Assembly: GCA_027460535.1 (NCBI GenBank)
Contig: JAPZAR010000030.1
Location: 60,001-92,000 of the forward strand
Length of the DNA stretch: 32,000 nucleotides
Reading direction: 5' to 3'
DNA from: Candidatus Methanoperedens sp.
Lineage (GTDB): Archaea; Halobacteriota; Methanosarcinia; Methanosarcinales; Methanoperedenaceae
The translations under genes and the position numbers were made by a program. The notes beneath the pieces were generated by a model, which saw only the letters and a list, made by a program, of their open reading frames with translations, had not been told where the DNA came from and made no database searches. Below, in pieces: positions 7,306 to 25,487 of the stretch (its first letter is position 1; every line of letters begins with the position of its first letter).

Positions 7306-7638
7306 TCACTCTTCTTTCAAGATCGCCATGGTTTTCTCTTTGAGATCAGGAAGCTCGTTCACTATCACAGCCCAAACAACATCTACATCAATTCCAAAAT
7401 AATTATGGACCAATATATTCCTCATTCCAATGATCTTAGACCATGGGATATCAGGATATTTGTCTCTGAAATTATCAGGAAGAGCACGCGCCGCTTCCCC
7501 AATTATCTGAAGGTGATGAACAATCCACGTTTGAATCAGTTCATCGTGCTCAAAAGCATCGCGTCCACGATTTGCGTACTTTTCAATTCGCTCAATGGCT
7601 TCCAGAATATCCAGTAGCCTTTCACGCACCTCTCTCAT
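7306..7638 (-). CDS. hepT: HepT (DUF86/HEPN) toxin of a type VII toxin-antitoxin pair
   Basis: 110 aa. The Rx4HxY HEPN motif is present as [13 protein letters not shown]. It overlaps the upstream nucleotidyltransferase gene by 4 nt. Confidence 0.9.
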
Positions 7639-7934
7639 AGAGGTTTAGCCTCTTTAAGTACTCGCTCACGAATACGTGGTCGTAATCCCCTTTCAGTCAC
7701 CACATCAACTTTACAGGCAAGTAAATCCTGAAGATCCATCAACAACCCACCGAGATCAAACAGGCTGCGTCCGGGCTCAAGGTCAACCAAAAGATCAATA
7801 TCGCTATCCTGCAAAGCTTCGCCGCGCGCGGCAGAGCCAAAAAGTCGGACATTCCGGGCGCCGTATTTTGCAGCAATGCGAAGGATTTCATTGCGCCTGA
7901 CTTTTAATAACTCTGCAATGTTCATCTTCTTCAT
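7635..7934 (-). CDS. mntA: MntA-type minimal nucleotidyltransferase antitoxin
   Basis: The GSx(n)DxD motif is present as [20 protein letters not shown] place the start at the ATG giving [10 protein letters not shown], because the track ORF start (7988) is upstream of the first Met of the conserved domain. Confidence 0.88.
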
Positions 7935-8049
7935 TTTATATATGTATGTGCACATCAAATAAGAATTTTGCTGAGCCCTATATTCCATCCACTCCAGATC
8001 AAACAGTTACAGGAAAAAACAATGTGCAGCGTTTCTGTTGTCCGAATTG

Positions 8050-8212
8050 TTGATAAAAACCCTTGGTTGGCGCTGTCCTCCGCCGCGTTCGCCATCCGAA
8101 AGCAGCGCCGCGTATCCATCCGTCGGGGGCACCGGGGAACAGAATAACCTCTGGCAGCGCGGAATCAAGAATTCGTACCACAATCGTTATCCGATGCTAT
8201 CTTCGCAACTCA
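8050..8212 (+). repeat. Intergenic repeat element copy R1 (5'-truncated or diverged)
   Basis: Contains the conserved core ggcgctgtcctccgccgcgttcgccatccgaaagcagcgccgcgtatcc (8069-8117) and the downstream ggaacagaataacc / caagaattcgtacc block, both shared with R2. Confidence 0.8.
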
Positions 8213-8223
8213 GATAATTCAAT

Positions 8224-8613
8224 TTACCATTTTTCATATTTCAAGTCCTCAATTTCACCAAAATGACCATCACGAGTAACAAGTATAAGATCATTTTGCA
8301 TGGCAACGGCAGCTATCCAAATATCATTTTCAGGAATTGGTTTTCCTTTATCTATAAGTTTATTTTTCACCATTCCATACTGATATGCAGTATTCTTGTC
8401 ACATGTAAGAATGGTAATACTATCCGCAAAATCTGATATTCGCTTTAAATTGGTCTTAGAATGTTTCGACTTGAAAGCACCAAAAAATAACTCTCCAAGA
8501 ACAATGCTGGAAATAAATACTTCATCTGCTTTTAAAAGATGTTCTTTTATTGATGTTTCTCCACTGAAAATGGCAATTACAATATTTGTATCAAGAATAA
8601 ATCTACCACTCAT
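8224..8613 (-). CDS. vapC: PIN-domain ribonuclease toxin (VapC-like)
   Basis: MSGRFILDTNIVIA at the N-terminus (first acidic PIN residue), then NDIWIAAVA and ILVTRDGHF. The ATG at 8611-8613 overlaps the antitoxin stop. Confidence 0.85.
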   Translation of the reverse strand: MSGRFILDTNIVIAIFSGETSIKEHLLKADEVFISSIVLGELFFGAFKSKHSKTNLKRISDFADSITILTCDKNTAYQYGMVKNKLIDKGKPIPENDIWIAAVAMQNDLILVTRDGHFGEIEDLKYEKW

Positions 8614-8830
8614 TAATATCAACTTTTTCGCACCCTTTTTCGATTGCCTGGGTCATATCATTGACATCATCAGCATTTAATATACCTGCAAAACGAAGGA
8701 GTTTCTTGCCCGAAACACCTTTTTGCGGGGATGGAGCTGCTGCTTCGGCCAGATCAAGAATTTTTATTTGTATCTCGGTGGGTAAGCGATCAAGTCGTTT
8801 TATTATTTCTCGCCTTTTAAGTTTGGTCAT
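8603..8830 (-). CDS. VapB-type antitoxin (small, precedes and overlaps the PIN gene)
   Basis: About 75 aa from the ATG giving MTKLKRREII. The call rests on position and overlap with the PIN gene. The C-terminal ...AIEKGCEKVDINEW resembles antitoxins paired with PIN toxins. Confidence 0.6.
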   Translation of the reverse strand: MTKLKRREIIKRLDRLPTEIQIKILDLAEAAAPSPQKGVSGKKLLRFAGILNADDVNDMTQAIEKGCEKVDINEW

Positions 8831-8921
8831 AATGAGATAAATCACCAATGTATAAATTTACTTATTGCATTTTTTGAATATAGCCCTTTCTTAAGAAGAA
8901 AATTAAAAGAGTATTACCTAA

Positions 8922-9192
8922 TCTCTCGCGCCGACATGACCCTATACAACCTCAAGCGCATCGTGTAAACTGTATTTTATAGAACACTGAAAATAAAAAC
9001 CGCGGATGAACGCAGATGAACGCAGATTGGCTGCATGGTATCCTCCAGCTGGCGCTGTCCTCCGCCGCGTTCGCCATCCGAAAGTAGCGCCTCATATCCG
9101 CCGGGAGGAGGCAGGGGGAACAGAATAACCTCCGGCAGAGGACTATCAAGAATCCGTACCGCAAGCTATTCTCCGATGCGACATTTGCACCC
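8922..9192 (+). repeat. Intergenic repeat element copy R2
   Basis: Has the 5' block cgcgccgacatgaccctatacaacctcaagcgcatcgtg, the decamer tandem cgcggatgaa/cgcagatgaa/cgcagattgg, the core at 9051-9099, and a 3' block shared with R1. Confidence 0.85.
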
Positions 9193-9288
9193 ATAAAACC
9201 AGTAAATATGTACGGGATAACAGGATGAACTGGATTTATCATGTGCTCATCAATAAAGTTATTACCCATAAGTGGGATATATGGGATT

Positions 9289-9552
9289 ATGCCTATGACA
9301 AAGATGGATGAAAGAGGTAGGGTTCTACTTCCAAAAGAGATCAGAGAAGAAATGAATCTCAAACCCAGTGAAGAATTGCTTATAATAAATGCAGGGAAAG
9401 AAATGATCTTGCTTAAGAAGGTGAATGTCAAACAAATGCTGGGAGATATCATTGATAGAGTAAAGGGACTCGATCTTGAAAAACTCGAACGACAAATAGA
9501 AGATGAAGGAAATAAGATTACGAAGAAAAAGTATCCGAAGGTTTTTAGTTGA
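9289..9552 (+). CDS. AbrB/SpoVT-fold antitoxin
   Basis: MPMTKMDERGRVLLPKEIREEMNLKPSEELLI is a typical SpoVT/AbrB swapped-hairpin N-terminus. The start is ambiguous between 9289, 9295 and 9304. The track start at 9241 falls inside repeat-flanking sequence. Confidence 0.75.
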   Translation: MPMTKMDERGRVLLPKEIREEMNLKPSEELLIINAGKEMILLKKVNVKQMLGDIIDRVKGLDLEKLERQIEDEGNKITKKKYPKVFS

Positions 9553-9940
9553 TACTAATCTTTTCATATCAGCAATAAAAAAGTGGGCAAAGAGTACTGA
9601 TTTGCTCCTTTATTTGCTCACGAGCACTGAAATAGAATTGATCGTAAACGAGGTTTTAATCGGAGAATACCGCAAGTTCACGCTCAAACTTGGAGCGCCG
9701 GAATTCTTAGAACTGGTATCCAGTGTTGTTGTGGTATTAAATCCGTCAGAAGAATATGTAAAAGACTGTAAACAATACTTTCCTGAAAATAAAATGGCTG
9801 ATGTTGTTCATGCAGCTACATGTCTCCAATATGATGCAGTCTTAATCAGCAATGATAAGCATTTTGATAAGATAAAAAACATGAAACTAATTGAAGTCTG
9901 GAAAATTAATGAAGCGATAGAAGAATTTAACATATTATGA
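9503..9940 (+). CDS. PIN-domain toxin partnered with the AbrB-like antitoxin
   Basis: FLVDTNLFISA, DVVHAATCL and AVLISNDKHF are PIN acidic-residue contexts. It overlaps the antitoxin gene by 50 nt. Confidence 0.8.
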   Translation: MKEIRLRRKSIRRFLVDTNLFISAIKKWAKSTDLLLYLLTSTEIELIVNEVLIGEYRKFTLKLGAPEFLELVSSVVVVLNPSEEYVKDCKQYFPENKMADVVHAATCLQYDAVLISNDKHFDKIKNMKLIEVWKINEAIEEFNIL

Positions 9941-9943
9941 TGT

Positions 9944-10290
9944 TATAATTATAAAATCACGCGCGCCGACATGACCCCATGCAACCTCAAGCGCATCGTG
10001 AAAACCAGATTTTTTATGAGCGCTAAAGATAAAAACCACAGAGCGCACAGAGGACACAGAGAAAAACAAATATCTTGAAAATGCCTCCGGGCGGCGCTAG
10101 TCTCCGCAGCGGTCAGATCGCCATCCGAAAGCAGCGCCGCATATCCGTTGGGGGGCACCTGAGATCAGAATAACCTATGACAGCGCTGTATCGCGAATTC
10201 TTACCGCAAAGAACGCAAAGGGCGCAAAGATTTTGCTGCTACGCTTTGCGTTCTTGGCGCACTTTGCGGTGATTTATGTTTAGCAGTTCA
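9944..10290 (+). repeat. Intergenic repeat element copy R3 (longest; carries an extra hairpin module)
   Basis: Starts with tataaaat (9950-9957) followed by cgcgccgacatgaccccatgcaacctcaagcgcatcgtg. It then has the 9-mer tandem cacagagcg/cacagagga/cacagagaa and the core at 10093-10146. A 26-bp imperfect hairpin at 10204-10269 is built from cgcaaag 9-mers. Confidence 0.85.
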
Positions 10291-10304
10291 GTTTTATCAT
10301 AAAT

Positions 10305-10567
10305 TATGACATTCTAACTATAAAATCCCGCGCGCCGACCTGACCCTATGCAACCTCAAGCGCATCGTGAAAACCAGATTTTTGAAGAGCACTGAAAATA
10401 AAAACCGCAGATGAACGCCGATGAACGCAGATTGGCTGCCTGGAAAAACCCCTCCGTCCGGCGCTATCCTCCTCCACATTCCTCTCGCCATCCGAAAGCA
10501 GCACCGCATATCCGTCTGGAGGGAGCAGGGGACAGAATAACCAGCGGCACAGGACTACCAAGATATT
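10305..10567 (+). repeat. Intergenic repeat element copy R4
   Basis: acattctaactataaaat (10309-10326) is followed by cgcgccgacctgaccctatgcaacctcaagcgcatcgtg, the decamer tandem cgcagatgaa/cgccgatgaa/cgcagattgg, the core at 10460-10513, and ggacagaataacc. Confidence 0.85.
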
Positions 10568-10770
10568 TATTACATTCTAACTATAAAATTCTGCGCGCAA
10601 ACGTCCCCCAAGCAACCATCGACGCATCGTGCAAACCGGATTTTCAATCTTCACGATGAATAAAATCCACAGATTGTGCAGATTCGCGCAGATTGGCTGC
10701 ATGGAATCCCCGGCCGGCGCTGTCCTCCGCCGCGTTCATCTCGCCATCCGAAAGCAGCGCCGTATATCAT
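10568..10770 (+). repeat. Intergenic repeat element copy R5 (3'-truncated at the end of the giant gene)
   Basis: acattctaactataaaat (10572-10589) lies 263 nt after the same string in R4. The core is at 10716-10768. Homology to the other copies stops about 22 nt before the stop codon (10791-10793) of the giant ORF. Confidence 0.8.
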
Positions 10771-10790
10771 TCAACCTTTCACCTTTATAC

Positions 10791-13700
10791 CTAAATTACC
10801 AAGAACGATTGGAGTTCAAAGTGATGCCTGGGTTCACTTGGAACGGGCCTTTTCAAATTAAACAGTGCAACGAGACCATTAGCCTTTGCATCCGTGCCAC
10901 CGCCGCTTCTCCAAGGAATAGTTACATCCATAGCATTTCCAGAACAATGATTGCTAACACCAGGATAAGTGTTTGGGGCCCTGTGAGAATCACCTATTTT
11001 ATATCCTTCTGCAGCCTCGTTACCTTTTGCAGCCTCGTTACCTACATATTTGCTTATTGCATTCTGTCTGATTAAGACATACTGATCAATAAGGTCAAAA
11101 ATCTTCCATTCGGGTTTATACCATAAGTTGCCGTCCTCATCTACTGGGTGCGCTCTCAGGTTTTCTATCGGCACTCGATTATTCAAAATGGACCATGCGG
11201 TACTCCACAGATGGGCTTTTTTAGGCGAGCGTACTCCTTCGCCAAACTTAATATTACCGGAAACAAGGTGATTTATAAGCAAATAATCAGAAAGTGATTT
11301 CACATGATTATACAGAGTTGGGCTCAGTTGAACACCATCCAGTTCAAAAAAGAACTCTGGGTCGTATACAATTCGATAGGGGGTCAGGTGTGTTGAACTC
11401 CTCGCCATATATTTATCAAATATATCCATCATAGGCGAAATTAATATTACATCACTTAGAGAAATTTGCCCGCTTGGATCAATTTTATCTGCAGGGGCAG
11501 CATTTGCATAAAGGTATTCATGTAATGAAACTGGATCGAAAATATCGCCTTTATAGGAATCCATTGATATGAAACGCCCAATAGCCTGATTGTAATACCT
11601 TGCTCTAAGATAATAGAACCCTACATTGTGATCATATTGTTCTCCATTATAAAGATAGTTGTTGGCTGTGGAGCCAAATTGTTGTAACAAAAGTCCAAAA
11701 GCGTCATACATATAACTATCTGTTATTGTTCCATTGGAATCCGCTAGCTTTCTTGCGGACATATGGCCATCGTATAGATAATAAGATATTGAACCACTTC
11801 GATTCTGGCTGATGAGATCATCCCCATAAACATAGCTGACAATTGGCATATCTACTCCGTCAGTTTCGAGTAGTACCTGAGCATATGGCTGATTTCCATC
11901 CACCAGATATTTTGTAGTATCTGATCCATCAACTATCTTCTGGACTCGAATGTTATCTCCATTATAGGCATATTCCACAACAGAACTTCCTGAAACATCA
12001 GTTATATCTGCCTTGACTAATCTATTCTGGAAGTCGTATCTGTAGAGCACATTTTCTGTTGCATTGATTCTTTTCAGCGTGTTTCCGTTATTATCGTAAG
12101 TGAAACTGTTGTCCCACTCAGTCAGCAGCCTGTCATTGGCATCATAGGTATACGTTCTACTGGCGTCATCATCCATCTTTATCAAACGGTTCCCTACAGC
12201 ATCATAACTATAGTTGATCATCCGCAATCCCGATACCGGATCATTGATACTCTCATTCGTCAGCTTGTAAGTCTTATCGTAGCTGTAGTCCACCTTCCGT
12301 CCAGTATCTTCTACAACTCTGATCCTGTTTCCTGCAGGTGCGAGTGTGTAGGAATAGGATGAGATGACCCCGCCGACAGATTTACGGTTCAGCAGATTTG
12401 TCATGCGGTTCAGTGAATCATATGTATATTCCGCCACTGCGCCGTTCGGATATGTCACGCTGTCACGATTGCCCACGGCATCGTAGGTGTATGATGTTAC
12501 ACCACCATCAGGGTCGGTCACTGTCGATAGCCTGTTCAGAACATCGAAAGTATAGCTCGTAGTGCCTGAAGGAATGGTCAATAATACCCGATTCCCGGCT
12601 TCGTTATATGCATAAGAGAGGCTCCTGCCATCTGGATCGGTCTGTTTGACCAGCCTGTCACGGGCGTCATATTCATACGAAGTAACGCCTCTGCTATCGG
12701 TCACTGTCTTTCGCTGTCCGCTGGCAGTGTAGGTAAATATATCAGAACTGCCGTCGGGGAAGCTCTTTCTGGTGAGGCGACTGTTGGCATCGTAGGTGAA
12801 TGTCGTGGTATTCCCATTGAAATCGGTCTGCGATACCATATTCCCTGCCGCATCGTAGGCTGCGGTTTCAGACATCCCAAGCGGAAGCGTGCGCTTTGTG
12901 CGCCTGCCGAGCTTGTCATATTCAAATGAGGTGATGTGGTTGTTGGCATCTGTCTGGGAGACCATGTTCCCGGATTCGTCATAAGCATAGGCTGTTACCT
13001 GTCCAAGCGCATCAGTGACCTTCACCAATCTTTCCAGAGCATCATATTCAAACTGCATAGCATTTCCAGCCTGATCAGTTTCTGAGACCTTTATTCCCGA
13101 AGCATCGTATGCTATCGCAGTTGAAGTGCTGTCGGGATATATTGTCTTTATTTTTCTATTTCTGAAATCGTACTGGTACTGGAAAACACTGCCTCTGGCA
13201 TCGGTCATCTGGATTTGGTTGCCGTTATTATCGTATGCGTATGTGGTTGTATTACCCAACGCATCGATGACTGATATTTGTCTGCCTTCCGAATCGTATG
13301 TATAGCTCGTGGGATTGCCGCGCTCATTGATAACTCGCGTGATCCTGCCTGCTGCATCGTACTCAGTCTGCGTAATGTTTCCGTCTGGATAAATGGTTTT
13401 GATCATCCTGCCCAGCTTATCATAGGTGTACCTTGTCGTTCGCCCTGCACGGTCGATTGATGTGTTTTTCCTGCTCTCGACGTCATAGGTATAGCGCTCA
13501 TCTCTGCCATCCGGATATACCATTTTAACAAGGTTACCCTTTGCATCATATTCGCTCTGCAAGCGGTTGCCAAGTTTATCGATCGTGGCAACTTCTTTCC
13601 CATTAGCGTTATATTCTGTAGTGGTCAAATTGCCATAATGATCAATCGTCTGCACCAGCCGGTTTGCCTTATCGTACCCGTACTTCGTAATACTCCCTGA

Positions 13701-16700
13701 AGGCATTGTCTCGTTCAATTTGTTTCCGTTCTTATCATATGCGTATGTGGTTGTATCGCCCAGCGCATCGATGACCGATATCTGCCTGCCTGCTGCATCG
13801 TAAGTGTATCGCGTGGGATTGCTGCGCTCATTGATAACTTGCGTGACCCTGCCTGCTGCCTCATACTCGCTCTGCGTGAAGTTCCCGTCTGGATAGGTGG
13901 TTTTGGTCATCTTTCCCAGCTTATCATACGTGTAACTGGTCGTCCGCCCCGCACGGTCGGTTGATGTGATTTTCCTGTTCTCGACATCATAGGTGTAGCT
14001 CTCATCAGTACCGTCAGGATTCACCAGGCGCGCAAGATTGCCCCTCGCATCATATTCGCGCTCCATGCGGTTGCCCAGCTTGTCGATCGTGGCAGCTTCT
14101 TTTCCGATAGCATCATATTCGGTCGCGGTCGTGTTTCCGTACGGGTCGATGGTCTGCACCAGCCTGTTTGACTTATCATAATCGTACTGCGAAATACCAC
14201 CTGTTGGCGAAGTCTCGCTCAACCGGTTCCCGTTGGCATCATAAGTGTAGGCGAAAACATTCCCCAGCGTATCTGTCTGGCTTACCATATTGCCCGCGCC
14301 ATCGTAGGTGTAGGATGTCACACCGCCCAGCGGGTCAGTCATCCTGATGAGATTCCCTGCCGCATCATACAGGTTGGCGGTCACATATCCCAGCGGGTCG
14401 GTCGTGCTCAGCAGATTGCCGTTAGCGTCATAGGTATTCGTGGTGACATTACCCATGGCGTCAGTGGTAATCAGCATCTGTCCGCGGCTGTTGTAGGTGT
14501 ACGCGACAGTATTTCCCAGCGGGTCTTTCTGGCTCAAAAGATTGTCCTTGCTGTCATAGGTATAGTTTGTCGTATATCCCAGCGGATCGGTCTCTGAGAG
14601 CTTGTTGTCCCTGGCATCATACGTGTATTTTGTCACCCCGCCAAGCGGATCGGTCTTTTGCAACACGTTTCCTCTGTCATCATAGTCATAGGCTGTGATG
14701 CTTCCCAGGCGATCTTTCACGATCTCCTGCCGTGTGCCGATGTTGTGGGTGTATTCGATCCTGTTCCCGTCAGCATCCGTATGCGCGATTACCCTGCCAT
14801 CGTTATCGTATTCTGTCCGGGCGGGCTTGATTCCCCGCGGATCGACGATATCCACAAGACCGTGATCGGAATTGTAGGTGAACCTTGTGGTGCGTCCTTC
14901 CTGATCCGTGACGCTCACAAGATCGCCGTAGTAATCGTACTCGTACCGTATCGTGCTGCCCATCGGGTCAGTGATCTTTGTTATCCGTGCCAGTGCATCC
15001 CTTGTGAAGGTGACGCTCTTTCCTCCGGAGTGGATGATGCCCCCTGCGCCTATGGTTATGGTATTGCCGTTCGTGTCCCTGATACTCTCAAGTCCGGTCG
15101 GCTGGTTGGCGGTATAAACCGCGCCGTCCATCGTGGTGAGCTTGTAGCGGTTGGGATTGATCTCATTGAAATCTGCATCGTACAGTTTGTCGTCTTGAAG
15201 GTAATCGTATGTTACAGGATCAAGTGATTCAAGAGTAGAAAACGTTCCGGATTGAGCAGCAAATGTGAAATAGCCCTGAGCAATACCGGATTCATCTGCA
15301 TACGAAGTCACTGCCTGGACATCGAACTCCTGGTCGCGGGTTCCGGGAATACTCACAACTATGGTATGACTGCTGCTCGCGCTTACTCCCCATTCCAGGC
15401 ACGTACCAAATAATGATCTCTTACAATACAGCCCCCATCCTTCTCCTGGTACGCGATTCTCCTGAAGCTCTATCGACTCAAAGTCAAGAGTCCATCCGAT
15501 GCCGAAATCTCCCTTTGATTTGACCCTGCTGTCATATGTGCGGGTGACCGTGATGGGTATTCCTGCCATCGGGACGGTCAGGTCATTGAAGCTGATGGTG
15601 AAAGCACCGACTTTCATCTCGCCATCGATCTGGTATGTCTTTATGACATAAGCCGTATTCCCGCTTGCGTCCTCCGCAGTGAGTTTGATATCATAGAGAC
15701 CGTTCCTCATCGTTGTCGGGTCAAGCTTGCCCAGGACACCATTCGTTACCGATGAATTCCCGCCTGCGAAGGTGATGAATTCATTTTTATCTTTGGCCGA
15801 GTACTCAAGCCTGTAGCTGATAAGATTTGCATCACTGGCAGTGCCTGTGATATTTGTGGGAAAGGAGAACTTTGAATCATCAGCAGGGGAAGTGATCCCC
15901 ACCGTGGGCAGTATTATATCTCCAGGAGAGAGCACCCTGAATTCTGCTTTATCCAGTCCCTCATTTCCCGCAGCATCGAGTGCAGTGCCAACAGCGGTGA
16001 AGACACCCACAGCTGGAGAGCTATATGTTGCATTCCATGAAGCATCAAGCGCAACAGGTACGCCGTTCACGGTCAAAGATCGTGAGATCACACCTACATT
16101 ATCTGTGGCTTTAACGGTTATTGTGACGGGTTCACCAACATTTGCCTGCGGTATTACGATGACCTCAACTGCAGGTCGGATATAATCCGGGCCTGCCGGA
16201 GGCGCGACGGTCAATGTCTGAGCTGGACTTGAAATTCCGTCACTGGTTGCGTTTATCAGTGTAGTTCCCGGTGCCACAGATGCCGCCAGTCCAGAGGCAT
16301 TGATTGATGCTACACTGGTATTGCTTGATGACCAGACTGCAATTGATATGAGATTCTTTTTAGTGCCGTCTGAATACGTTCCATTGGCAATGAACTGCTG
16401 GGTCTGACCAATAGCTACGGTTGGATTTACTGGTGTAACTGTGATCGAGACAAGTTTTGCAGAGGTTACTGTCAGTGTCCTGGCCGGACTTATGATCCCG
16501 TCACTGGTTGCATTTATCTGGGTAGTTCCGGGTGCTACCGAAGTAGCCAATCCGGTGACATCGATCGTTGCTACACTGGTGTTGCTTGATGACCAGATTG
16601 CTGAAGAGGTGATGTTCTTACTGCTGCTATCTGTATAGGTTCCGTTGGCGGTGAATTGCTGGGTCTGACCCTGAGATATGGTTGGATTTAGAGGTGTTAC

Positions 16701-19700
16701 TGCGATTGAAACCAGTTTCGCAGGGGTTACGGTCAGGATCTCTGCCGGACTGGTTATTCCTTCGCTTGTTGCATTTATCAGGGTATTTCCCGGTGAAACA
16801 GATGTCGCCAATCCTGAGGCATCGATGGTCGCTACACTGGTATTGCTTGACGACCATGCTGCAATTGATGTGATATTCTTTTCAGTGCCATCTGTATAAG
16901 TTCCATTTGCTATGAACTGCCGGGTCTGACCCAGAGCTATGATCGGGTTCACGGGTGTTACTGCTATCGAAACCGGTTTTGCAGAAGTTACGGTCAGCGT
17001 CTGGGCAGGACTTGTTATTCCATCGCTGGTTGCATTTATCAGGGAAGTTCCGGGCGCTACCGAAGTAGCCAATCCGGCGGCATTGATCGTCGCCACGCTT
17101 GTATTGCTCGATGCCCATGTCGCAAATGATGTAATGTTCCTTATACTGCCATCTGAATAAGTTCCATTTGCGACAAACTGCTGAGTCTGACCCAGAGCTA
17201 TCGTGGGATTTAACGGAGTGATAGCGATAGACACTAATATTGCAGAGGTTACAATCAAGACCTGAGCCGGACTGGTTATCCCGGCGCTTGAAGCAGTGAT
17301 ACCGGTAGTTCCTGCTGCTTTTGATGTCGCAAATCCTGAAACATCAATAGCGGCTACACTGGTATTGCCTGATGACCAGGTTGCTGTGGAAGTAATGTTT
17401 TTTATACTCCCGTCTGAGTAGGTTCCATTTGCCATGAACTGTTTAGTCTGACCCAGGGATATTGTGGGATTCACAGGAGTAATTGCTATCGATACCAATT
17501 TTGCAGAAGTTACAGTCAAAGCTTGAGCCGGACTGGTTATCCCTTCGCTTGAAGCTGTAATGTTTATTGTTCCCGCTGATACCGATGTCGCTGTTCCTGA
17601 ATTATCTATAGTGACTACACTTGTATTGCTCGATGACCATGTTGCAATAGATGTGATATTCTTTGTACTGCCATCTGAATATGTTGCATTGGCCGTGAAA
17701 TGCTGTGTCTCACCCAGCGCTATGGCTGGATTTTTGGGTGTAACTTCTATCGATACCAATCTGGCAGATGTAACATTCAAAGTCCTTGCTGTTTCATTTA
17801 CCCATGTAGCGTTTATGTTTCCTGCTATATCGACTGTTCTCGTTCCTATCTCGTAAACTGTATCCGGAGCAAGACCTGTTGCATTGTAGTACGGATTGGA
17901 GATGTTATCTTTCCAGCTCCCGTTCAGGTATATCATCGTATGGTTGAAATCCGAATCCTGAGGATTCGACCATGTCCAGTTTATCCATGTCGTCCCGTTG
18001 ATGGATGCAAGATTTGTTATGCTTGCCGGCGGCGAATTATCCAGCAATGGCGCTGTTCTTGCGGTATGGTTGACCCATGTCTGGTTGATACTCCCGCAAG
18101 GTTGGGGTATATTTCGGAACGTACCAATAGCACTTAATATAGCATTTCGATTTCCATAAAACGTCGGTGGATATCTATCCCCTGTGAAGTACATCCTGTA
18201 CTGATCATCAGATATTCTAACAATTTCTCCCGGCGATACGATACTATAAGGGCCGCCTTCAAGCCCCTTATTATCTATGCGGATGCCGCATTCTTTACTC
18301 CATTTTAAACCGTCTGCTGATACAGCGGTCAAAAGGCGACTGTTCCATTGTGCATCCGCACCACTATAAGACAAGACAAATCTTCCATCTGAAAATTTAA
18401 TTATCCGAGGTGATGATACACCAAAACTATCATAGGTTCCACCAATGTTGATTCTTATTCCTTCTTCTTTTGTCCAGTTAAAGCCGTCAGTGGAAACAGC
18501 GCTAAGAATGCGGTAATTACCATATTGAGAATTCAAACCCTGATAGTACATTCTATAGGTCCCGTCTGATAACTCTACGATATTTGGACCCTCTGCTAAT
18601 ACAGTGTCATAAGTTCCACCATAGTCAATCCTTGTTCCTTGCTCTTTAGTCCAGTTTAAACCATCTGAAGATATCGCACTTAAAATTACCCCTCGTACCC
18701 ATCCTCCAAATGCGTATTCATGATCATAGTACATTCTGTAGGTTCCATCGGAAAGAACTAATACTTCCGGTTCATTTGCCCAACCTTCCTGACCTCCATA
18801 ACCCTCCCCAACTCGAATGCCACTTTCTTTTGTCCAATTCATAGCATCTGAAGAAATCGCACTTCGTATGTTCGTCGGATAAGTATAAGGGGGAACGGAT
18901 GAAGCATCTGAATGATACATCCTGTATTTTCCATCTGCCAATTTGACGATACTGGGATTACTTGCCCAGCCACCATCCAGCCTGATGCCACTTTCAACCG
19001 TCCAGTTCGAACACGGCTCGATACAATCGACAACATCACTTAATCTGGCGGATATGGTGTGTTCTGTATCCTGTGAAAAACCTGTTGCATTGTAGAATCG
19101 AACGCCTTTTGAAACATTGGTCTTGAATATGCCGTCGATGTATATCATTACCTTTGAGAAATCCGAATTTCCCGGTTCTGTCCATGTCCAGTTGATATAG
19201 GTCGGAGCATAGCTTTTGTTTGTCAGGTTGGTTATGCTCGGGCAGGATGTTGTGTCAGTTACAGGCGCCGTCCTTGCAGTGTGATTTACCCAGGTCTGAT
19301 TTATGTTGCCATAAATATCCACAGTCCTGGTCGCAATAATATGCTCTGTATCCGGAGCAAAACCAGTTGCATTAAAGAATTGCACTCCTCTGGCGATATT
19401 ATCTTTGAATACGCCATCTATCCAGACGCTTACACTGGCAAAGTCAGCATCCGCAGGATCAGTCCATGTCCAGTTGATATAGTTCCGGGCATAGCTTACG
19501 TTTGTCAGGTCAGTGATGCTGGCAGGTGGTGTTGAATCACATGATACTTTCTCAGCGCCCACGCCGACCAAGAGATCGGGGGAGGTGTATTTGCGGGCAT
19601 AAATATAATCCCAATCGGCATACGAGCCTGCAGTTGCCCAGACAGTAGAAGAAATAACCACTCTTTGGGTTGCCTCGACTGGTGTGGTTAATGTAGCTGA

Positions 19701-22700
19701 AAACACATCTAGATAATTTGTTCCGTCATAGCTATAACGTAACGCAATTTGTTGTCCGTTCCTTGTGACCTCATACCAGTAGGTGTGCCTGACCCAACCA
19801 TTATTGACTATATCATCAGGAGCAACCAGATTGTTCTTATTAACGAGGTTGGTATCATTATTTACAAGGTATACGGTTATATCGTTATAATTATACCACT
19901 GATCCGTACCGCGGTCGATCAAGAGGTAATCACTAATACCATTTCCTAAAGGAATTATCAGCTTTTGACTTTGTGCACCAGTTCCGGGATAGTTAAAATT
20001 ATACGTCACTTTTGTACGCAAGATCCAGTTATCCCCATCAAAAGGACGAACCAAACTCAGGCTCGGGCACCAGCCACCACTACATCCTTGTCCCGTCCAT
20101 CCTCCTCCATGAGATAGCGGGCCTTGAAGGATATACTTTAAGTATCCTGGGTTATCGGTTAGTGAATAACTACCTTGACCTGACAATACTTGCCAAGATG
20201 AATCCAGAATCGGACTCGAAAAATCATCAAAAAACTCAAAAGTCTTTGTTCCATCGCTCGCACTCGCCGCGCCCGGATTCCCGTAATACATCCGCATGCT
20301 GGTATCTCCGCTTGCGAGTATGCTCGAAACATTCACCCACACCAGCGCGCTCCTGTTCGCATAATCCCATGTCTCAAACCAGTAACTCAACTCGGCGCCG
20401 CCCGCATCCCTGAATCGCAGGTCTGCGCCGCTGGTCTGCGCGCTGGTGGGGAAGGCGCTTCCTGTGAGATTTACAAGCACCTGATAATCAGTCAGGGCGC
20501 TGCCGGGGTTATTGATCGTTATATCCCGGTAATACTGCCAGCCGTCCTGGGTGCACGATGTGATTTCAGGCGCCGTCTTTGTGGTGCGATTTACCCAGGT
20601 CTGATTTATGTTGCCATTCGTATCCACAGTTCTTGTCGCAATACTATGCTCTGTATCCGGGTCAAAACCAGTTGCATTAAAGAATTGCACGCCTCTGGCG
20701 ATATTATCCCTAAATACTCCATCTATCCAGACGCTCAAACTGGCAAAGTCAGTATCCGCAGGATCAGTCCATGTCCAGTTGATGTAAGTAGGGGCATAGC
20801 TTACGTTTGTCAGGTCAGTGATGCTTGCAGGCGGCGCTGCATCACAAAATCCTTTCTCCGCGCCCACGCTGATCGAAGGCTCAGGGGACGTGTATTTGCG
20901 GACCAAAACCCTGCCGGGATAATTTAATGTGGTGTAGCCGTAGTTGTTGTAGAGGTCTGAAACTTCATCTGCATTCAAAGCGCGGTTGTAGATGCGGACT
21001 TCGTCGATTGTGCCGTTGAAATAACTGTTAAGCACAGAGCCTATCGTTAATGGAACATCGCTTGCAGCTATGGTGCCGGATGCATTTGCGGTTGAAACAG
21101 GAATTCCATCAACGTAGAGCACCAGGTTTGTGCCGTTATAGGTGCCTGTTACGTGATGCCAGCCTTTTGTTTGGATCCTGTTGTCAAACACGGAGTATAT
21201 GCCTTTGTTTGTGTTGATGCGCATACCGAAGCCGAAGGGAGTGCTTCCGTAACTGTTCTGACCGAGGCCGTAGAGGAGGCTGTAAGATGCGTTGCTGCCG
21301 GTTGTGTCGTATCTGGTGACTTGACCATTATGCGGCGCGAAATAGACGTTTCTGCCGTCAAAAACCCCACCACCAAAGCCTCCATTTGAATTTGAATTCT
21401 GCACTCCTGTGTCGTAAAATGTCCAAGAGTTCGAGTCCATGAATGAATTTGTTGTGTCGTATTTCATTACCCGACCGTCATAGTAAGGAATGAAAAAGAC
21501 ATATTTGCCGTCAAAGACAGCACCATGGAAGCCTTTTTTACCATAATTTCGAATTCCTGTATCATAAAAGTTCCAGGAATTCGGGTCTGCGAACGAGCCC
21601 AATGTATCGTATCTCGTTACCCTATCAAGAACAATAGGTACAAAATAGACATATCTGCCATCAAAAACTGCTCCTGAGAAACCCATTGAATTTGAATTCT
21701 GAGCTTTCGTATCATAGAAGTTCCAGGAATTCGGGTCTGTGAACGAACCACCAGTGTCGTATCTTGTTACCTGTCCATGACCCGTACCCGGATCTCCGTA
21801 TGGTACGAAATAGATATATTTACCGTCAAAAACCGCACCATAGAAGCCTCTTGAATTTGGATTTTGAGCTCTTGTGTCATAGAAACTCCATGAGATTGAG
21901 TCTGTAAAAGAGCTTGTCGTGTCATATCTTGTTACTTGGCCACCCTTACCTGTATAGGAAGGTGCTGGCACGAAGTAAATATACCTACCATCAAATACTG
22001 CTCCAATAAAACCTATTGAATTTGAATTCTGAGCTGTCGTGTCATAGAAGTTCCAGGAATTCGGATCTGTGAAAGATCCGGCTGTGTCATATCTTGTAAC
22101 CTGCCCGTGATAGGTGTAGGTGTCCCAAACTTCTGGTACGAAATAAATATATCTGCCGTCAAAAACTGCACCATAGAAGCCTTTTGAATTAGGATTCTGC
22201 GCTGCTGTGTCATAGAAACTCCATGAAGCTGAGTCATTAAACGAACCATTTGTATCATATCTTGTAACCTGACCATGATAAACGCCGTTATTGTATGGTA
22301 CAAAATAGACGTATCTCCCGTCAAAGACTGCACCAATGAAGCCTTTTGATTTAGAATTTTGAATTGCTGTATCGTAGAAGCTCCATGAATTCGGGTCTGT
22401 AAAATTACCCGTTCCAGTTTTATCCACAATCGCGCGTATGTTTTCCAGAGACGCGCCTCTTGATGCGTTTACCCATGCTTCGATGCTAATTTCATTCTGA
22501 ATATTCAGACTTGTATCATTCCCAGCATTTGCATAATCTTTCAAGCCATCAAAACTCAGCGCTTTTCCGAACTTCCCGGTAAGCCACATCGGATCATTAA
22601 CTAAAGCCCCATTATTTCCTTTTCCAGAGGTATCATAAGCAGTCACACTCGAACCTTCATCAAAATGCCAGCTTCCCATCACTGGCTTAACATTGTCGAT

Positions 22701-25080: not shown

Positions 25081-25449
25081 TCAGCGACTTGGCACGACAT
25101 CTTCCTTATCTGGATGAGCGAGCCTTTTCCATAGTCTGATGATCTTTTCGCTACGATCTTCTTTCTTAAGGTCGAGAGAAAGCTCTCCTCCATTGATATG
25201 CACCACAGCCTCGCGAATTGCACAGCGATAATATTTCTCCTCGTTACCCTGAAGATTTATGATCGTCTTCACATGCTGAATGAGCCCCGTACTTTCCAGA
25301 AGCTTAAGCTTCCTGTACACAGTTGCAAGCGGTATTTCGAGTTCCTGGCTCAATTGGATGGCTGAACATTCTTTTATGGATGTCAGGGATATTATTGCTC
25401 GTGAGTACTTATTTGCCAGGAGCTCAAAAAGCAACTCTTCTTTGCTCAT
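25081..25449 (-). CDS. ArsR-like winged-helix transcriptional regulator
   Basis: MSKEELLFELLANKYSRAIISLTSIKECSAIQLSQELEIPLATVYRKLKLLESTGLI is a wHTH. An alternative TTG start at 25482 lies 5 nt after the upstream gene's stop. Confidence 0.75.
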   Translation of the reverse strand: MSKEELLFELLANKYSRAIISLTSIKECSAIQLSQELEIPLATVYRKLKLLESTGLIQHVKTIINLQGNEEKYYRCAIREAVVHINGGELSLDLKKEDRSEKIIRLWKRLAHPDKEDVVPSR

Positions 25450-25487
25450 ATTTGATCTATTCCAATTACCTTCTTCCACCAATATTA

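Follow-up and report, generated by a model that had tools for sequence, protein, structure and literature searches.

What would an archaeon that makes no murein do with an enzyme predicted to cut it? The question is raised by a stretch of 32,000 nucleotides from Candidatus Methanoperedens sp. (positions 60,001 to 92,000 of contig JAPZAR010000030.1, assembly GCA_027460535.1), referred to here as the window and used for all coordinates, in which one reverse-strand gene (10791-24746) is recognizable from the list of open reading frames (ORFs), its translation and Pfam as encoding an Rhs/YD-repeat polymorphic toxin of 4651 amino acids (aa). Methanosarcinales, to which Ca. Methanoperedens belongs, have neither murein nor pseudomurein, and an earlier note on this DNA, made from the letters alone, had proposed that the C-terminal tip of the protein is a VanY/M15-like peptidase and thus a weapon of archaeon against bacterium. 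We conclude that the gene probably encodes a Sec-exported, surface-displayed Rhs toxin of Ca. Methanoperedens, with a predicted murein-peptidase tip directed against bacteria and with no need of an immunity protein. The murein-cleaving, inter-domain reading is supported as far as computation on sequences and models allows, and attack on neighbouring bacteria is the most likely service that the giant protein performs.

The toxin tip and the VanY/M15B peptidases

The tip is formed by the stop-free last 224 codons of the 4651-aa ORF (aa 4428-4651; 10794-11465, reverse strand), and a family profile, hhalign, an AlphaFold2 model and Foldseek combine to predict that it is a divergent LAS/M15B-like zinc peptidase. 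It follows a DPSGQ sequence and contains three motifs, GVRS, SNHCSGNAMD and EPRHHFE, all of them with the residue numbers that the earlier note had assigned. All three are encoded on the reverse strand. Motif 1, GVRS (aa 4504-4507; 11226-11237), contributes R4506, an arginine found in 38 of 38 members of the domain family. Motif 2, SNHCSGNAMD (aa 4598-4607; 10926-10955), aligns with SEHQLGLAVD of VanY-B and supplies H4600 and D4607 as predicted zinc ligands; its underlying pattern, S.H..G.A.D, occurs only once in the six reading frames of the 32-kb window. Motif 3, EPRHHFE (aa 4638-4644; 10815-10835), aligns with EPWH of VanY-B; in it E4638 would serve as general base and one of H4641 and H4642 as third zinc ligand.

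The motifs are no mere chance matches: besides the single occurrence of S.H..G.A.D, conservation within the family centres on these same positions. In an alignment of 38 sequences of the domain family (A3; mean column identity 32%) no substitution is seen at four motif positions, namely the Arg, the first and last His and the Ala, and conservation is at least 90% at the Ser, Gly, Asp and Glu. A 77-sequence full-length alignment has four invariant columns in all, three of which are motif residues (His, Ala and His), and the Methanoperedens tip retains every family-invariant residue. We note that two further family-invariant motifs, DxDGNxWY (DEDGNLWY, aa 4536-4543) and AAEGY (aa 4578-4582), have no VanY counterpart; both sit in a family-specific insertion of ~70 residues between motifs 1 and 2 and could make up an additional metal- or substrate-binding element.

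Homology of the tip family to the VanY/LdcB-type (M15B, LAS-fold) zinc peptidases is supported by five independent lines of evidence, drawn from sequence profiles, modelled structure and fusion partners. Searched against the sequences in the PDB, the A3 profile matches VanY-B (5hnm, 6a6a and 5zhf) at E = 2-4e-4, with SxHxxGxAxD lying residue on residue on SEHQLGLAVD and E-x-W-H on EPWH. Comparison by hhalign of A3 with an alignment of six annotated VanY/M15 proteins from plasmids (A4) gives E = 4.4e-6 and a probability of 87%, with motifs 2 and 3 aligned; the local alignments stop short of motif 1, and in global mode the Arg of the family GVRS is paired, with moderate posterior, with the invariant VanY Arg of SGYR(T/S). 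The AlphaFold2 model built on A3 (pLDDT 91.9, pTM 0.86; block pLDDT 83-92) places the Arg motif after a strand and before a helix, an arrangement that VanY and LdcB presumably share. In Foldseek comparisons with the PDB, ranks 1-11 are occupied by VanY, VanXYc, LdcB and one M15 endolysin (probability 0.96-0.99 at ranks 1-8), the best match being VanY (E = 1.8e-3, probability 0.99), and ChiX, the RB49 peptidase, Hedgehog-N and a Streptomyces DD-peptidase (1lbu) appear lower down; the top match in BFVD is 'Peptidase M15B' (E = 7e-5, probability 1.0). Fourth, the only recurrent Pfam families among the relatives are VanY, Peptidase_M15_4 and Peptidase_M15_3, with weak VanY matches in 6 of the 77 full-length and 4 of the 38 trimmed relatives (best 3.5e-5). 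The fifth line, the cell-wall modules fused to relatives of the tip, is set out below.

The earlier note had named beforehand a lack of LAS/M15 similarity as the first of several outcomes that would sink its proposal; such similarity was found both by profile (VanY-B and hhalign, at the E-values above) and by Foldseek. Its reading of the motif order is likewise borne out, by profile search and hhalign for alignment on VanY-B and by global hhalign for the Arg. The tip thus displays features by which LAS/M15 members are recognized, namely His-x6-Asp, ExxH, an N-terminal Arg (compare VanY SGYRS and VanX R71) and, in the model, the LAS fold, and it shares with VanY, VanXY and LdcB (MEROPS M15B; PDB 5hnm, 6a6a, 4oak, 4ox3) the order Arg motif, SxHxxGxAxD, ExxH. 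It differs from them in its identity of only ~13-15%, its ~70-residue insertion, a TM-score below 0.4, and a context that is that of a weapon rather than of resistance or housekeeping. Neither the query nor most of its relatives reach a curated threshold (Pfam VanY PF02557, Peptidase_M15_x, NCBIfam), and we therefore place the tip in the LAS/M15 superfamily as a divergent sister family and not as a member of VanY.

A bacterial effector family and its immunity candidates

A word-indexed search with the tip recovered 10 relatives at 32-53% identity, and an exhaustive search at E <= 1e-3 recovered 174 cluster representatives, of which 100 also pass E <= 1e-10. The domain family accordingly has at least 174 members, and it is covered by no Pfam or NCBIfam model; a second protein search, with profile A3, contributed little, with just 9 proteins recovered. 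Nearly all relatives carry the domain at their C-terminus. Among 77 longer relatives the fusion partners include PG_binding_1 (9), SH3_3 (7) and LysM (2), together with single instances of Transgly, Amidase_2, OmpA, GH46 and Pesticin, and these partners argue for the cell wall as the predicted target of the family. A further partner, eCIS_core (DUF4157), is fused in 28 of the 77 and is a marker of the toxins and cargo of extracellular contractile injection systems (eCIS) (PMC8213781). In a gammaproteobacterial metagenome-assembled genome (MAG) one homolog is flanked on one side by a ClpB/ClpV-type ATPase and a lipoprotein ORF and on the other by vgrG.

A locus search with profile A1 yielded six GTDB representative loci and eight metagenome loci. 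All six of the GTDB loci are bacterial, from Gammaproteobacteria, Planctomycetota, Myxococcota/Deltaproteobacteria and one unclassified bacterium. The Methanoperedens tip is thus the same domain, at 30-58% identity, as that of bacterial polymorphic-toxin, eCIS and type VI secretion system (T6SS) effectors (P0001-P0155; L007, L011, L016-L019, L022), and like some of them it is mounted on an Rhs core. The effectors that carry an organism name are all bacterial and are followed by small secreted or lipoprotein ORFs, whereas the copy in the window is archaeal and has no such ORF.

The bacterial loci contain plausible immunity genes. Downstream ORFs bear signal peptides or lipoboxes in L016, L017, L018 and L019, and in the two Rhs-borne copies examined small ORFs with signal peptides come next downstream. 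That these candidates are secreted is expected if the cognate toxins act in the cell-wall compartment. We note that a candidate immunity family lies downstream of the closest or near-closest tips (L018, 1449-1868; L019, 1398-1817; L022, 1584-1880); its members are 98-139 aa long, share the motif WRAIIAF.DT..VSEDWNW.Y, carry a lipoprotein signal in two of three cases and have no Pfam match. The lipoprotein of L007, considered separately as a general immunity family, was rejected, as neither the other loci nor the window contain a homolog of it.

These candidates bear on where the enzyme would act. The tip could instead be delivered to the bacterial cytoplasm and there destroy wall precursors (D-Ala-D-Ala, UDP-MurNAc-pentapeptide or lipid II) in the manner of VanX or VanY, leaving mature murein untouched. 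The cytoplasm is where Rhs toxins usually act, VanY and VanXY, which trim precursors, are the nearest structural and profile relatives, and the archaeal protein has no peptidoglycan-binding module. The signal peptides and lipoboxes of the bacterial immunity candidates nevertheless point to the periplasm or the exterior, and the many relatives fused to PG_binding_1, SH3_3 or LysM carry binders of assembled wall; we take cytoplasmic action to be unlikely.

At the archaeal locus the situation is different. The ORF list, taken down to 25 aa, shows nothing plausible in the region 3' of the stop codon (9941-10790), so that no credible immunity ORF is present in the 850 bp after the Rhs stop, and a repeat search finds there three copies of a GC-rich repeat, described below. 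Nor did a hidden Markov model of the candidate immunity family find a match when the window was searched in six-frame translation (best E = 2.6). The cognate immunity gene that is looked for immediately downstream of an Rhs polymorphic toxin is therefore lacking, an absence that fits a producer without murein, which would not need the protein.

The same absence counts against the proposal that the tip is aimed at something other than murein, such as the envelope proteins or pseudomurein of rival archaea, or that it has a role other than as a weapon, such as the remodelling of its contacts with bacteria or scavenging of bacterial wall debris. Close relatives are the usual targets of polymorphic toxins, LAS-fold domains with non-murein roles exist (Hedgehog-N is among the fold matches), and the long adhesin-like N-terminus of the protein fits attachment too. 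A self-like target, on the other hand, would call for an immunity gene, and none is present; the family is otherwise bacterial, with murein-binding partners and secreted immunity candidates; and what an Rhs shell typically encloses is a toxin and not a digestive enzyme. Pseudomurein, moreover, contains L-amino acids only and is cut by unrelated cysteine peptidases. We regard a non-murein or non-weapon role as quite unlikely.

The Rhs shell, the giant protein and its genomic setting

The carrier of the tip is an Rhs/YD shell of ~1380 aa (aa 3045-4427; 11466-15614, reverse strand), delineated by Pfam and NCBIfam and running from a DUF6531 plug (aa 3045-3090 in Pfam) through RHS repeats to an Rhs-associated core that ends with DPSGQ. 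Twenty-five stretches match RHS_repeat (E = 1.6e-155), and NCBIfam adds YD_repeat_2x and RHS_core matches. The Rhs_assc_core model TIGR03696 (NCBIfam) is covered in full at 58.6 bits (cutoff 32.5), and the match ends at Q4427 of DPSGQ. DPSGQ itself (aa 4423-4427; 11466-11480, reverse strand) is, by its position and by similarity to Rhs relatives, the point where core and toxin meet and where autoproteolysis presumably takes place.

The Rhs cores of P0183 and P0184, the closest in the protein database, are 67-71% identical as far as DPSGQ and bear unrelated tips; in P0184 the identity is 71% over 433 aa up to DPSGQ, and similarity stops ~15 aa beyond it. Cores this similar that are followed by unrelated sequence indicate that the tip is polymorphic and exchangeable. 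Other close cores bear nuclease, deaminase, M23 and NlpC/P60 tips, and the presence of the last two shows that cell-wall hydrolase payloads recur in this Rhs clade. The relatives concerned are P0223, with a Peptidase_M23 tip, and P0264, with an NlpC_P60 tip. The earlier note had considered a wall peptidase an unusual class for Rhs proteins; it is indeed uncommon, but it is not without precedent, the M15-like domain itself being found on Rhs cores in seven relatives and the M23 and NlpC/P60 tips providing further cases.

We also note that a hydrophobic helix of ~20 residues opens the tips directly after DPxG. It is present in the Methanoperedens protein (aa 4428 to ~4455; 11380-11465, reverse strand; ISLSDVILISPMMDIF) and in P0183, P0184, P0185, P0223, P0264 and P0279, despite their otherwise unrelated tips, and it may be a shared linker or a membrane-interacting element.

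The ORF as a whole (~13.9 kb) is intact in the ORF listing and in translation. The protein has exact sequence matches at NCBI (MCZ7358032.1 and MCZ7370041.1, on two contigs), where it is annotated merely as 'DUF2341 domain-containing protein [Candidatus Methanoperedens sp.]', and Pfam finds in it RHS_repeat (25 times), Big_2 (10), DUF2341 (2), Laminin_G_3 and DUF6531. The N-terminus, read from the translation, resembles a signal peptide (aa 1-33, with K2, a hydrophobic stretch and VSA|AS; 24648-24746, reverse strand), from which Sec export of the giant protein would follow. Between it and the shell lie ~3000 aa of display or adhesion modules (15615-24647, reverse strand), identified by Pfam and from the translation as Big_2 arrays, DUF2341, LamG, a beta-propeller-like segment and a tandem repeat of ~55 aa. 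The repeat consists of six to seven units outside any Pfam family (aa ~775-1135; ~21340-22425, reverse strand), with the signature SWxFYDT..QN.NS.GF.GAVFDGRY.YFVP...GQVTRYDT and the appearance of beta-propeller blades.

Could this be a bacterial Rhs gene misjoined to an archaeal contig during assembly or binning? The named nearest relatives of the Rhs core and of the toxin domain are mostly bacterial, as that explanation would have it. The gene, however, lies in the middle of its contig (121.8 kb) with archaeal genes on either side: seven of seven flanking proteins looked up, from both sides, match Ca. Methanoperedens MAG records exactly, and the other named members of their clusters are solely Methanoperedens or uncultured archaeon. 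The identical 4651-aa protein exists under two accessions on two contigs, and the GC content of the whole gene (0.47) is the same as that of its neighbours. With archaeal genes on both sides and matching GC, a misbinned bacterial gene is unlikely, and we find an artefact barely credible. The archaeal host had been guessed in the earlier note, and the placement of both the flanking and the toxin proteins in Ca. Methanoperedens MAGs confirms it.

Within the gene, composition is less uniform. GC and GC at third codon positions (GC3) are 0.42 and 0.38 in the tip versus 0.48 and 0.54 in the Rhs core and neighbouring genes, and a clean compositional signal of recent transfer was not obtained from GC/GC3 along the gene. 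We note that over aa 4201-4500 (12150-11250, reverse strand) the values fall to 0.38 and 0.33, a drop that starts within the last ~230 aa of the Rhs core and not at DPSGQ; this would fit replacement of the tip by recombination in the conserved end of the core.

Several other elements surround the gene. Directly upstream, on the same strand, is an ArsR/TrmB-type helix-turn-helix regulator (Pfam HTH_20; 25081-25482, reverse strand), which could control expression of the Rhs gene. Downstream, between 7900 and 10800, a GC-rich non-coding repeat of ~230-280 nt is present in five copies of the same orientation (cores at 8089, 9071, 10118, 10485 and 10741), the first of them beginning ~25 nt past the Rhs stop codon. 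Its motif, GCTGCTTTCGGATGGCGA, occurs five times against an expectation of 0.02. A search of Rfam gave nothing for the repeats at E <= 1, the RNA folding energy computed for one copy is not in excess (z = +0.98), and the repeats are possibly similar to miniature inverted-repeat transposable elements. Interleaved with them is a toxin-antitoxin-like gene cluster (7306-9940), in which a MazE/AbrB-like gene (9241-9552) and a PIN gene (9503-9940) are confirmed by Pfam, and a PIN-like ORF (8224-8622) and a HEPN/nucleotidyltransferase-like pair (7306-7988) are judged from their translations.

Proposed action, precedents and meaning

The following course of events is proposed for the toxin, with its activity and target steps drawn from homology, from the fusion partners and from the secreted or lipoprotein immunity candidates of bacteria. 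The protein would be exported by Sec and displayed on its adhesin-like stalk of ~3000 aa, whose domains are seen in the sequence. The Rhs shell would enclose the tip and the core would cleave at DPSGQ; shell and motif are present, and encapsulation with autoproteolytic release of the tip has its basis in Rhs and TcC structures already published. Contact with a bacterium would set the tip free. It would bind Zn through H4600, D4607 and either H4641 or H4642, with E4638 as general base and R4506 contributing as well, and would hydrolyse a D-amino-acid-containing bond of the peptidoglycan stem peptide as a DD-/LD-carboxypeptidase or an endopeptidase. As the nearest relatives are DD-/LD-carboxypeptidases, the tip would most probably trim donor stems, action as an endopeptidase being the alternative. 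Cross-linking would be lowered, and the bacterial cell would lyse or cease to grow. The source of the toxin module itself was most likely the eCIS, T6SS and Rhs effector pool of bacteria. In its most specific form, that a surface Rhs capsule of Ca. Methanoperedens delivers a murein-specific zinc peptidase from the bacterial eCIS/T6SS pool into bacteria, as the first immunity-free archaeal Rhs weapon, we consider the proposal about evenly poised.

A number of results weigh against a wall-peptidase weapon. The 224-aa tip alone has no Pfam or NCBIfam match even at E <= 10, and phmmer of the tip against the PDB gave nothing but one spurious phiKZ match; with these direct searches empty, the M15 link emerged only through family profiles. 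The Foldseek TM-scores are just 0.34-0.39, with a root-mean-square deviation of ~9 A, values indicating that only the core is shared or superposed with the LAS peptidases. A Pfam scan of the 4651-aa protein found no PG_binding, LysM, SH3 or other cell-wall-binding domain. The six GTDB loci include no other archaeal relative of the toxin domain, a single-protein scan of JGI metagenomes found no close relative of the tip, and the domain may be a recent and possibly transient acquisition. Sec-secreted archaeal Rhs cargo would, moreover, have to pass the outer membrane of Gram-negative bacteria. In motif 3, finally, the query reads E-P-R-H-H where most of its relatives have E-x-W-H, with one extra residue and the W replaced by H.

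This last departure raises the possibility that the tip is what remains of a module gained by horizontal transfer, in decay, impaired in catalysis and with no current function, and the GC and GC3 of the tip, lower than those of core and neighbours, and the lack of close relatives in the metagenomes searched speak for it as well. An ExxH can, however, still be read in the query as E4638...H4641, and E-x-H-H variants recur in other members of the family; the 13.9-kb ORF is intact with all family-invariant residues kept, and the AlphaFold2 model of the region is confident. Decay seems to us very unlikely, and a functional wall peptidase, used as a weapon against bacteria, remains the reading that we prefer.

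How does such a protein compare with known systems? In its apparent signal peptide, YD shell, DPxG-type core and variable C-terminal toxin it resembles WapA and the TcB/TcC cocoon of ABC toxins. WapA of Bacillus subtilis is Sec-dependent, carries a tRNase tip, has a cognate immunity protein and acts between bacteria; the Methanoperedens protein differs from it in its predicted wall-peptidase tip, its archaeal producer and its lack of an immunity gene. For a polymorphic toxin system of bacteria a VanY-like head has been noted (Burroughs et al. eLife 2025; PMC12419801). That system and the protein described here both use a VanY-related domain as an exchangeable toxin head; the former has a cystatin-like delivery scaffold, is bacterial and is coupled to immunity proteins, unlike the Methanoperedens protein.

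The closest parallel in biology is the finding that ~5% of archaeal genomes encode modular peptidoglycan hydrolases, two of which kill a bacterium (Strock et al. PLoS Biol 2025; PMC12352652). There, as here, an organism without murein encodes an enzyme that cleaves murein (by prediction in our case), and a weapon across domains is implied. The screen used in that study demanded a Pfam catalytic domain and a cell-wall-binding domain in one protein, and the Methanoperedens protein has no recognizable domain of either kind; Rhs, M15, VanY and Methanoperedens are unmentioned in the main text. Those hydrolases are soluble and modular, whereas the enzyme described here would be the encapsulated tip of an Rhs protein. 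No paper joining Methanoperedens with Rhs was found in a literature search whose coverage did not extend to Makarova et al. 2019 on archaeal polymorphic toxins. Archaeal antibacterial peptidoglycan hydrolases (2025) and VanY-like toxin tips are thus already published; what appears to be new, as supported by sequence and model, is that one protein unites an Rhs polymorphic toxin with a predicted archaeal wall hydrolase directed against bacteria, and that it has an uncurated M15-like tip and no immunity gene.

The payload of a polymorphic toxin does not usually reveal its victim. Here, if the reading is true, a murein-specific payload in a murein-less producer without an immunity gene would make the class of target, bacteria, readable from sequence, and would itself show that the target lies in another domain of life. 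An encapsulated Rhs tip would add a mode of delivery to those of the archaeal peptidoglycan hydrolases, and one that a screen for Pfam catalytic and wall-binding domains, such as that of the 2025 survey, would miss. The M15-like effector family (at least 174 clusters) and the candidate immunity family are now defined and open to curation as predicted antibacterial enzymes and their immunity candidates. The host itself, which oxidises methane anaerobically and shares dense consortia with bacteria, is of importance for the cycling of methane and nitrogen.

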